Positions 1,058-2,697 of a stretch of 64,000 nucleotides of DNA are shown here, piece by piece. A model generated the notes under the pieces. It was not told the origin of the DNA and made no database searches. It worked only from the letters and a program-made list of their open reading frames with translations. The stretch is from an uncultured Eubacteriales bacterium (lineage in GTDB: Bacteria > Bacillota > Clostridia > Christensenellales > UBA1242), in NCBI GenBank assembly GCA_948806215.1, contig CAQIDI010000002.1, positions 12,968 to 76,967 of the forward strand. Direction: 5' to 3'. The position numbers and the translations under genes were made by a program. How positions within the stretch are numbered: position 1 is the stretch's first letter; the number at the start of each line of letters is the position of its first letter.

Positions 1058-1275
1058 ATTTCCCGACCCCACCTTTTGGCACAAATCTAGTTTATTGTTT
1101 ACATTATAAACTTTAAAGCAAAAAAATGCAACCTAATATACTAAAAAAATCAAATTTTTTAAAAATATAATATTATGTACTGTTCAAATTAAAAATATTT
1201 ACAATTAAAAAAATTTTGGGCTAGACATTAAAAATTTTTTTTGATAAACTTTTATAACTAAAAGGAGATTAAATT

Positions 1276-1329
1276 ATGGACCCAGTGCCGAATCAAAAAC
1301 TAAATAACGCCAGCACTGAGAAAATTTAA
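1276..1329 (+). CDS. putative 17-aa leader peptide MDPVPNQKLNNASTEKI upstream of mgtE
   Basis: ATG is 8 nt after a strong SD (AAAGGAG, 1261-1267). Pro codons are at positions 3 and 5. The stop lies 43 nt before the mgtE ATG. Absent from the ORF track because it is short. Confidence 0.5.
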   Translation: MDPVPNQKLNNASTEKI

Positions 1330-1370
1330 CTCTAGTTTTTTATTGTTTTCTCGTGCTAAAAGGAGAAAAC
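1283..1370 (+). promoter_or_regulatory. mgtE leader with mutually exclusive helices, one of which sequesters the mgtE SD
   Basis: GUUUUCUC (1345-1352) can pair with GAGAAAAU (1318-1325, the last sense codons of the leader ORF) or perfectly with GAGAAAAC (1363-1370, 3' half of the mgtE SD AAGGAG). An extra helix is CAGUGC 1283-1288 with GCACUG 1313-1318. Confidence 0.5.
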
Positions 1371-1371
1371 A

Positions 1372-2697
1372 ATGGATATAGAAAAATTATTAGTTGATAA
1401 AGATTTTAACGAACTAAAAAAACAACTTGAAAACAAAAACATAGCCGATATTGCTATGTTATTTGAAGGAATTGAAGATAAAGATAAAATTATATTATTT
1501 AAGCTACTAAATAAAGATATAGCAGCCGAAGTTTTTTCTTATCTTAATCCCGATATGCAAGAAACAATTATTACCGCCATTAAAGATAGCGATATTCAAA
1601 ACATTATGAAAGAACTATATCTTGATGATGCAACCGACTTTATTCAAGAAATGCCGGCAAATGTTGTTAAACGCGTTTTAAAAAATGTTGATAACAAAAC
1701 CAGAGAACAAATTAACAAGTTACTTAGCTACCCCGATAACAGTGCTGGCAGCATTATGACCACCGAATTTATAGACTTAAAAAGCAACTTAACTGTTAGC
1801 GAAGCTTTTGAAAAAATTAGAAGAAAAGCAAACGATAGCGAAACAGTTTACACAATTTACATTACCGATGAATATCGCAAGATTAGTGGTGTTGTTAGCA
1901 TTAGAGATTTATTAATTGCAAAAAACGATGCAAAGTTAAAAGATATTATGGAAACCAATGTTATTACTGCAAACACACTAACCGATAAAGAAGACATTGC
2001 TAATATGTTTTCTAAATACGATTTTTACACTTTGCCAATTCTTGATAACGAACAACGCCTAGTGGGCATTGTTACAGCCGATGATGTTATGGAAGTTATT
2101 CAGAACGAAGCCACCGAAGATATGGAAAAAATGGCAGCTATAACCCCTAGCGACGAAAGCTATTTAAAAACCAGTGTGTTTAAGCACGCAAAAAAACGAG
2201 TGTTTTGGCTACTGCTTTTAACTTTATCGGCTTCTATTACAGGAGCAATAATTTCTCACTTTGAAGATGCCTTTGTTTTAGTTCCGGTTTTAGTTAGCTT
2301 TATTCCAATGCTTATGGATACTGGTGGCAACTGTGGTTCGCAAGCATCAACTTTAATAATACGCGGGCTTGCTTTAGGCGAAATTAAAACTGCCGACTAT
2401 TTAAAAATAATGTTTAAAGAATTTAGGGTTTCGCTTGTTTGTGGGGTAATACTATCTATTGTAAACTTTTTTGTAGTGTGGTTACGCTCTGGCGACCCAC
2501 TAGTTGGCTTGGTTGTTGCATTAACACTACTAATAACAATTTGTGTTGCTAAATTTATTGGCGGAATGCTTCCAATACTTGCTAAAAAAATAAAATTAGA
2601 CCCAGCAATTATGGCTGCCCCAATTATTTCCACCTTAGTAGATTGCATAACTATTGTTTGCTATTTCTTAATTGCAACTGCAATTTTAGGCTTATAA
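1372..2697 (+). CDS. mgtE: magnesium transporter MgtE
   Basis: 441 aa with an N-terminal MgtE_N-like region, a tandem CBS region, and a C-terminal 5-TM channel with PMLMDTGGNCGSQAST. Confidence 0.95.
   Translation: MDIEKLLVDKDFNELKKQLENKNIADIAMLFEGIEDKDKIILFKLLNKDIAAEVFSYLNPDMQETIITAIKDSDIQNIMKELYLDDATDFIQEMPANVVKRVLKNVDNKTREQINKLLSYPDNSAGSIMTTEFIDLKSNLTVSEAFEKIRRKANDSETVYTIYITDEYRKISGVVSIRDLLIAKNDAKLKDIMETNVITANTLTDKEDIANMFSKYDFYTLPILDNEQRLVGIVTADDVMEVIQNEATEDMEKMAAITPSDESYLKTSVFKHAKKRVFWLLLLTLSASITGAIISHFEDAFVLVPVLVSFIPMLMDTGGNCGSQASTLIIRGLALGEIKTADYLKIMFKEFRVSLVCGVILSIVNFFVVWLRSGDPLVGLVVALTLLITICVAKFIGGMLPILAKKIKLDPAIMAAPIISTLVDCITIVCYFLIATAILGL

Follow-up and report, generated by a model that had tools for sequence, protein, structure and literature searches.

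The mgtE locus of an uncultured Eubacteriales bacterium raises the question of how synthesis of a Mg2+ channel is controlled where the expected riboswitch is missing. The locus lies in a 64-kb stretch of 31% GC (contig CAQIDI010000002.1, positions 12,968 to 76,967), referred to below as the window, in whose numbering all coordinates are given. In Firmicutes, mgtE is the textbook target of the M-box, a ∼170-nt aptamer that senses Mg2+ by direct binding and in most cases acts on an intrinsic terminator. In the window, the gene is preceded by a short upstream open reading frame (uORF) with its own Shine-Dalgarno (SD) sequence and by three competing RNA helices, one of which buries the translation start of mgtE. 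The architecture of this leader is well supported by its features, conservation, co-variation, geometry and modelled energetics. Judging from modelled ribosome positions, it is probably an attenuator of translation that, like those of ermC and cat, is operated by the ribosome, with low Mg2+ as the likeliest signal; translation of the uORF, pausing of the ribosome at its N-terminal motif and the role of Mg2+ are what we infer.

The first-pass annotation of this DNA, which was made from the letters and a list of open reading frames, had reported that no M-box could be found and that the leader was too short to hold one. Both statements were borne out. A search of the window with Rfam 15 gave no match at gathering score near the leader, and between 1000 and 1500 there was none even at E ≤ 10, the M-box (RF00380) and the mgtA leader included; nowhere in the window did an M-box reach the gathering score. 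The predicted promoter, whose −10 element ends at 1250, places the transcript start near 1257, and hence only ∼115 nt remain upstream of the mgtE ATG at 1372, too few for the three-helix aptamer. The elements of the locus, all on the forward strand, are the following.

1222-1250, forward strand: predicted promoter with a −35 element TAGACA (1222-1227) and an extended −10 element TG-A-TAAACT (1242-1250; TAAACT at 1245-1250), from a consensus scan
1261-1267, forward strand: SD of the uORF, AAAGGAG, 8 nt before its ATG
1276-1329, forward strand: leader ORF (uORF), 17 codons plus TAA (1327-1329), encoding MDPVPNQKLNNASTEKI
1276-1290, forward strand: N-terminal codons M-D-P-V-P, the proposed pause site (from the peptide list and codon usage)
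1283-1290, forward strand: region 1, the 5' arm of helix 1:2 (CAGUGC 1283-1288 plus G1290), lying on codons 3-5, from the minimum free energy (MFE) fold
1311-1325, forward strand: region 2, the shared strand on the last uORF codons; 1311 and 1313-1318 form the 3' arm of helix 1:2, and 1312-1325 form the 5' strand of the anti-sequestor
1339-1357, forward strand: region 3 (anti-SD strand), whose part 1339-1352 forms the sequestor with region 4 and whose part 1345-1357 forms the anti-sequestor with region 2
1359-1376, forward strand: region 4, holding the mgtE SD AAAGGAG (1359-1365) and the start codon (1372-1374); 1363-1376 is the 3' arm of the sequestor
1313-1318, 1318-1325, 1345-1352 and 1363-1370, forward strand: the segments GCACUG, GAGAAAAU, GUUUUCUC and GAGAAAAC, read directly
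1372-2697, forward strand: mgtE, the regulated gene, 441 aa, with Pfam domains MgtE_N, CBS and MgtE and with homologues found

Direct reading located every sequence element that the first-pass annotation had listed. The two pairings described there, one sequestering the mgtE SD and the other competing with it, proved to be longer than claimed. The sequestor (helix 3:4) consists of 14 bp between 1339-1352 and 1363-1376 and covers the GAG of the mgtE SD as well as the entire AUG. The anti-sequestor (helix 2:3) consists of 13 bp with one bulged U, is formed by AGCAC-U-GAGAAAAU (1312-1325) and GUUUUCUC-GUGCU (1345-1357), and has a calculated stability of −13.6 kcal/mol. Folding of positions 1255-1380 confirmed that the leader is unusually structured, with an MFE of −28.9 kcal/mol versus −16.9 ± 3.1 kcal/mol for 200 dinucleotide shuffles (z = −3.9), none of which was as stable. 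The individual duplexes of the window were likewise stronger than their shuffled counterparts (z = −3.5 for 2:3 and z = −2.3 for 1:2). Two pairing states can be drawn from these helices: one combining 1:2 with 3:4, in which the ribosome-binding site (RBS) of mgtE would be buried (OFF), and one formed by 2:3, in which it would be free (ON).

Two further candidates were set aside. Helix P0, in which GGAG of the uORF SD (1264-1267) pairs with CUCU (1330-1333) 3' of the uORF stop codon, is present in the MFE structure, and it is not counted as part of the element because in most leaders of the set described below it is no better than shuffles (z = −0.2 to −1.4 in seven of ten). An intrinsic terminator at the sequestor was also rejected, as the hairpin has no U-tract downstream and a terminator scan finds none there.

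Leaders of relatives were obtained by a search of 5.8 billion proteins, after which the contigs of exact protein matches were retrieved. The MgtE homologues found in this way are graded from 99% down to 56% identity, and nine further distinct leaders were recovered, the MgtE proteins of which are 90, 77, 76, 68, 66, 65, 63, 61 and 66% identical to that of the window; NCBI labels these relatives “MAG: Clostridia bacterium” (MAG, metagenome-assembled genome). MgtE of the window species belongs to a cluster found on more than 140 contigs. The leader set thus comprises the window and nine relatives, ten distinct leaders spanning 61-100% MgtE identity. Three components of a translational attenuator recur in each of them. 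A uORF of 10-20 codons precedes mgtE, its ATG lying 6-10 nt behind an SD-like GGAG, AGGA or AAGGA. A hairpin burying the mgtE SD and AUG (3:4) is present in the MFE structure. Finally, a strand that coincides with the 3' end of the uORF or follows it closely (region 2) can pair with the sequestor's 5' arm and loop (region 3), so that 2:3 and 3:4 exclude each other. The 2:3 duplexes range from −9 to −20 kcal/mol and beat shuffles of region 2 in every leader (z = −1.9 to −6.9). None of the ten loci matches any Rfam family, the M-box included.

The paired strands have diverged strongly between subgroups and have kept their complementarity; the 2:3 pairing is formed by AGCACUGAGAAAAU with GUUUUCUCGUGCU in the window and by AAGAGUGUGUGAAA with UUUCAUACACUCUU in the leader L094. 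Cognate 2:3 pairs are on average more stable than non-cognate ones (−13.8 versus −8.2 kcal/mol, permutation p < 5e-5), and the same is seen for 3:4 (−15.4 versus −10.6 kcal/mol). RNAalifold applied to the four closest leaders recovered 1:2 and 3:4 with three compensatory pairs; in this four-sequence comparison helix 1:2 has six pairs, and A1284-U1317 is replaced by U-A through a double change in two sequences. The MAFFT alignment of these four leaders sets the window row off by one column in region 3, and was therefore left out of the anti-sequestor pair counts. Helix 1:2, which joins codons 3-5 to region 2, is clear in six leaders (window, L081, L082, L083, L090 and L179; z = −2.2 to −5.8); within the window subgroup z ranges from −2.3 to −5.8. 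Co-variation of the paired segments, one of the checks proposed in the first-pass annotation, is therefore found in the cognate preference and in the compensatory changes of 1:2 and 3:4.

The peptides encoded by the ten uORFs are MDPVPNQKLNNASTEKI, MDPVPNAKLNITGTEKI, MDSVPNKNLIQIGIEKIS, MDPVPNKTKFNIICTEKGLK, MDTVPRNKNLIKHE, MDAVPPNYQTNKKI, MEPVPPKTKI, MDYVPLKKQNLI, MDYYPSRVNIYF and MDILPPRKITQE. Their N-termini read MDPVPN, MDSVPN, MDTVPR, MDAVPP, MEPVPP, MDYVPL, MDYYPS or MDILPP, and all ten agree with the consensus M-[DE]-x-[V/Y/L]-P. It had been expected that a motif M-[DE]-P-x-P would be shared by relatives. The uORF, its SD and both switch helices are indeed conserved in all ten leaders, but the third position of the motif is free: Pro3 is exchanged for S, T, A, Y or I, which leaves Pro5 as the sole invariant proline. 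Residue 2 is encoded by GAC or GAT (Asp) or by GAA (Glu), residue 4 by GTG or GTT (Val) or by codons for Tyr or Leu, and Pro5 by CCG, CCC or CCA. Variation of this kind matches that of a coding sequence and points to selection at the level of the peptide. The sole insertion or deletion in the uORF among the four closest leaders, which form the subgroup of the window, is 3 nt long. The nucleotide pattern ATG-GAN-N6-CCN occurs a single time in the window when both strands are searched, and the uORF motif was found nowhere else in it.

The distance between the motif and the switch is also conserved. Counted from the uORF AUG, the first nucleotide of region 2 lies 27-46 nt downstream in all ten leaders (median ∼36); counted from the first nucleotide of the stop codon, it lies between −20 and +4 nt, and the stop codon is always situated inside or just before region 2. 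In terms of a modelled ribosome footprint, region 2 begins just past the leading edge of a ribosome that holds codon 5 in the P site.

The arrangement suggests how a ribosome could select between the two pairing states. With no ribosome on the uORF, 1:2 and 3:4 would form and mgtE would be OFF. A ribosome that reaches the uORF stop codon would cover region 2, region 3 would pair with region 4 during transcription, and mgtE would again be OFF. A ribosome lingering on M-[DE]-x-hydrophobic-P, however, would cover region 1 and expose region 2 beyond its leading edge; 2:3 would then form first, and a 30S subunit could load on the mgtE SD (ON).

These states were modelled by treating the ribosome as a mask of 27 unpaired nucleotides and by computing how much ensemble free energy is needed to open the mgtE RBS from −15 to +13. 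This measure replaced a yes/no test of the equilibrium fold under the mask, by which only four of the ten leaders were flipped. Averaged over the ten leaders, the opening cost is 10.1 kcal/mol for naked RNA, 5.4 kcal/mol with codon 5 in the P site and 12.5 kcal/mol with the ribosome at the uORF stop; the difference between stall and stop is significant (Wilcoxon p = 0.004) and has the expected direction in nine leaders. When the ribosome is moved codon by codon, every leader shows a low plateau from P-site codon 1 to codons 5-8, beyond which the cost climbs by 3-10 kcal/mol, the step coming after codons 5-9. When transcription of the window was simulated, the MFE structure was 2:3 as long as the 3' end lay at 1357-1366, and the fold flipped to 3:4 once region 4 had emerged.

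With respect to the earlier proposal, the model sustains the claim that complete translation of the leader lets the sequestor form, the opening cost being highest with the ribosome at the stop codon. The claim that either early stalling or drop-off switches mgtE on stands for stalling, for which the modelled cost is lowest, but not for drop-off. Drop-off in the window subgroup would clear region 1, so that helix 1:2 could re-form and OFF would be favoured; hence a pause, and not abortion, would be the productive event. Folding with a masked ribosome, which had been put forward as a check, gives a mixed answer, since the opening cost falls as predicted but the equilibrium fold of the window keeps the sequestor.

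The most divergent leader, L094, behaves differently. Between positions 1413 and 1500 of that locus, whose uORF encodes MDYYPSRVNIYF, 2:3 is a perfect 14-bp hairpin of −17.7 kcal/mol versus −8.5 kcal/mol for the sequestor. The opening cost is 4.3 kcal/mol for the naked RNA, which would be ON-prone, versus 14.9 kcal/mol with a ribosome near the stop (OFF). This suggests that the default state may differ between lineages.

Several findings weigh against an attenuator that works through a pause at the motif. With a stalled ribosome on the window leader the sequestor (−18 kcal/mol) remains ∼4.5 kcal/mol more stable than 2:3, and the equilibrium fold keeps the sequestor in six of the ten leaders (the window and five others), only four being flipped. 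As the sequestor is still favoured at equilibrium, the ON state would need co-transcriptional kinetics and/or capture by the 30S subunit. Helix 1:2 is not significant in four leaders (L085, L088, L092 and L094). A length of 10-20 codons is the random expectation at 31% GC, and the open frame itself is therefore no evidence of coding. With one acidic residue and one invariant proline, the motif is also weaker than the DE/P-rich sequences known to destabilise ribosomes. The rare, G/C-rich codons at the start of the uORF could serve helix 1:2, and not slow decoding. Finally, one must bear in mind that the sample amounts to ten independent sequences only, which fall into about three subgroups.

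As regards the signal, a precedent is offered by MgtL of E. coli and Salmonella, in which EPDP after fMet makes translation abort or pause no later than the sixth residue; the effect is more marked at low Mg2+ and turns on mgtA. In general, ribosomes are paused by acidic residues that come early in the nascent chain. The uORF motif has in common with that of MgtL that residue 2 is acidic, that a proline comes no later than residue 5 and that the nascent chain is still too short to occupy the whole exit tunnel. By analogy, when cytoplasmic Mg2+ is low, the first steps of elongation, over the acidic residue and the proline of this very short chain, may become slow or unstable, and a shortage of Mg2+ would then result in more MgtE channel being synthesised; such a route from low Mg2+ through a pause to more MgtE would be physiologically coherent. 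A bolder proposal is that M-[DE]-x-hydrophobic-Pro is a previously unrecognised minimal Mg2+ sensor of Clostridia, which acts through pausing or destabilisation of the ribosome, gates MgtE, represents a convergent use of the MgtL principle and has replaced the M-box in this lineage. We give it slightly less than even credence.

The strongest competing explanation keeps the attenuator and replaces the signal: the pause might report the supply of Pro-tRNA(Pro), EF-P or an ABC-F protein (EttA-like), the ATP/ADP state, general translation capacity or a ribosome-targeting small molecule. MgtL itself is reported in the literature to respond also to proline limitation and to EttA. Codon usage in the 34 long ORFs of the window points the same way, as codon 5 is CCG, a rare codon (9% of Pro codons), in eight of the ten leaders; GAC (17% of its family) and GTG (11%) of the window uORF are rare as well. 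Rare N-terminal codons would fit slow decoding, and they could equally fit the G/C needs of helix 1:2. In addition, three leaders have Pro-Pro at codons 5-6, a context of the EF-P type. However, Pro5 is CCC or CCA in the two remaining leaders, so that no specific rare codon is needed, no gene of antibiotic resistance or proline metabolism is linked to the leader, and the regulated gene is a Mg2+ channel every time, in a place where other lineages have a Mg2+ riboswitch. A signal other than Mg2+ is considered unlikely, yet it is the alternative to be taken most seriously.

Rather improbable, in our opinion, is a switch made of RNA only, be it an unrecognised riboswitch, a protein-binding leader or a Mg2+-stabilised hairpin, in which the “uORF” would be untranslated and its SD- and AUG-like parts structural. 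The conservation of the helices with compensatory changes would suit such an RNA, pairing of region 2, and not the peptide, accounts for the “TEK” kept at the C-terminus in the window subgroup, and other candidate riboswitch motifs of mgtE do exist, e.g. in Thioalkalivibrio. Nevertheless, outside the SDs and the paired strands only ATG-GA and the CC of codon 5 are invariant, and the changes between leaders are exactly those expected of codons replaced synonymously or conservatively. A conserved unpaired “pocket” is absent, the loop within 1:2 varying in both sequence and length, and the uORF AUG is unpaired in the window subgroup and paired in others, which leaves it without a common structural role. 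A leader of ∼115 nt with simple hairpins, matched by no Rfam family in any member of the clade, also argues against such a switch.

Even less probable is a constitutive dampener, that is, a hairpin which keeps mgtE translation low without switching, the uORF being a by-stander or an mRNA-stabilising or standby element. The sequestor is the equilibrium fold in every modelled state of six leaders, and it is well established that MgtE channels are already gated post-translationally, through binding of Mg2+ at their cytosolic domain. Such a dampener, however, leaves unexplained the significant, co-evolving helix 2:3 of all ten leaders, the N-terminal motif and the constant distance from this motif to region 2. 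As for a small protein acting in trans on the transporter, small proteins such as MgtR, MgtS and MgtU are established regulators of enterobacterial Mg2+ transporters, but a similar role of the uORF product is hardly credible, since conservation is limited to residues 1-5 of peptides which vary from 10 to 20 aa, are hydrophilic and have no membrane segment.

The uORF is confined to one clade. No SD-preceded short M-[DE]-x-x-P uORF was found in ∼158 distant mgtE loci (≤54% MgtE identity), and at 56-58% identity the mgtE of relatives is preceded by another kind of leader or by none. A scan of GTDB species representatives with the MgtE protein yielded relatives at ∼50% identity only, none of which has the uORF, and these were accordingly used as the negative set; a scan of metagenomes with the clade alignment gave, among the matches listed, only loci at ∼50% identity and no new member of the clade. 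When 20 distant relatives were scanned against Rfam in the same manner as the clade, an M-box was detected upstream of mgtE in three of them (L005, L010 and L042; 93-112 bits, gathering score 44).

Other leaders were noticed besides those of the clade. In L095-L097, where MgtE is 56% identical and mgtE starts at 1501, there is no uORF. A terminator-like hairpin (AUUCCGCUACUACAA...UUGUAGAGCGGAAU followed by U8) lies at about 1390-1480 and is overlapped by an alternative hairpin (UAGUGGAAGAUUCCGCUACUA). No Rfam family matches this leader at E ≤ 1, and it may represent a further, unclassified attenuator of mgtE. Four loci (L017, L018, L019 and L131), which come from three Lachnospiraceae/Acetatifactor MAGs and one unlabelled metagenome contig, share an identical SD-preceded uORF of 13 codons, MRCLIRRREPWKR, ∼50 nt upstream of mgtE, which could be a different leader peptide or simply reflect close relatedness. 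SD-preceded ORFs of 29-30 codons starting with MD[AST]GSGS were seen 147-210 nt upstream of mgtE in L003, L006, L009, L119 and L175. They are sited about where an M-box aptamer would lie and are suspected to be read-throughs of conserved aptamer sequence, but no M-box reached the gathering score in L003, L006 and L009, the three of these loci that were scanned. The SD-preceded uORFs of the distant mgtE loci show no shared motif.

The promoter arrangement GGGTTTACA-N17-TGTTAAACT was found upstream of the uORF SD in eight of the ten leaders and would place this SD right at the beginning of the transcript. The promoter-like block lies 10-35 nt 5' of the uORF SD (window, L081, L082, L083, L085, L090, L092 and L179); the −35 element is TAGACA/TGGACA in the window and L081, and a GGG 5' of the −35, which might be an operator or an UP-like element, is kept in most of these leaders. 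Two genes of the window are divergent from mgtE, both on the reverse strand. The product of 34-738 has 234 aa and a T4SS_pilin domain (PF18895, E = 7e-11), and 899-1084 is a 61-aa ORF, the N-terminus of which resembles a signal peptide or a lipobox (MKKLMRSKFSWAIVVAVVAVSVLFAVFAC). Several relatives have an ORF of 52-64 aa and/or a T4SS_pilin gene at the equivalent position upstream of mgtE. Reading of the leader on the minus strand was also considered; its sole feature is a 28-aa ORF (1356-1442), which looks spurious.

To our knowledge, ribosome-based sensing of Mg2+ has so far been documented only for enterobacterial mgtA and mgtCBR. If the mechanism proposed for the mgtE leader is true, such sensing would be a solution reached repeatedly and no enterobacterial oddity. 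The leader, with its ∼115 nt and a motif of five residues, would offer a very small test system for Mg2+-dependent elongation of acidic/proline chains on Gram-positive ribosomes. It would also provide a rule for annotating mgtE leaders that lack an Rfam match in a common uncultured lineage of gut and rumen Clostridia.

A full-text search of the literature accessible to searching gave no report of control of a bacterial mgtE by a uORF or a leader peptide, and the nearest relatives in function are found among systems of other kinds. In mammals, uORFs in the 5' leader of the mRNA of the channel TRPM7 make translation of the main ORF responsive to Mg2+ (PMC4227784); they act by eukaryotic scanning and reinitiation, and they are unrelated to the mgtE leader in sequence and structure. 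The “mgtE motif” described by the Breaker lab in 2024 (PMC11109978) is a riboswitch candidate limited to Thioalkalivibrio, a single gammaproteobacterial genus. It, too, is a conserved structured RNA in front of mgtE, and its basal stem takes in the SD and the AUG, but by its description it is a multi-stem RNA with many conserved nucleotides and with no leader peptide. The M-box occupies the same niche, the 5' leader of a Firmicute mgtE, and presumably serves the same purpose of turning the gene OFF at high Mg2+; the leader studied here differs in being shorter, in lacking an aptamer and in having a conserved coding uORF.

In its logic, the leader resembles the attenuators of ermC, cat and cmlA, which use the same four segments (1:2 and 3:4 versus 2:3), with region 1 in a short SD-equipped leader ORF and region 4 comprising the SD and AUG of the regulated gene. 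In both cases an early-arrested ribosome frees region 2 for region 3 and exposes the downstream RBS, which for mgtE is predicted by the modelling. The leaders of cat and cmlA stall the ribosome after only 5-8 codons. Those genes, however, confer resistance and are induced by ribosome-binding antibiotics, whereas mgtE encodes a housekeeping ion channel and no drug is implied; the leader peptides share no similarity with the mgtE uORF.

In its proposed physiological role, the leader is close to MgtL. In Salmonella and E. coli, too, a 17-codon leader ORF stands at the 5' end of the mRNA of a Mg2+ transporter, an acidic residue and a proline come right after fMet (MEPDP versus MDPVP in the window), and how far the ribosome advances over the first ∼6 codons decides between alternative helices, an unfinished leader turning the transporter ON, as is here proposed for mgtE. 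The earlier suggestion of a translational MgtL analogue attached to a different transporter family can thus be retained, as the likeness is one of logic and both gene and output differ. The mgtE leader is a functional analogue of MgtL and not its homologue, because it has no Rfam match, belongs to a different gene and has a different output. MgtL controls a P-type ATPase, MgtA, through Rho-dependent termination of transcription, whereas the leader described here belongs to another phylum and to the channel MgtE, and would act through translational occlusion of the SD and AUG. In contrast to the DE/P-rich EPDP, the motif of the clade keeps only [DE]2 and P5, with a variable Pro3, and a ribosome that stays, not one that drops off as in the current model of MgtL, would favour the ON state. 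Should the motif indeed be a sensor of Mg2+, the principle of MgtL would have been invented independently in a different phylum, for a different transporter family and with a translational instead of a transcriptional output.

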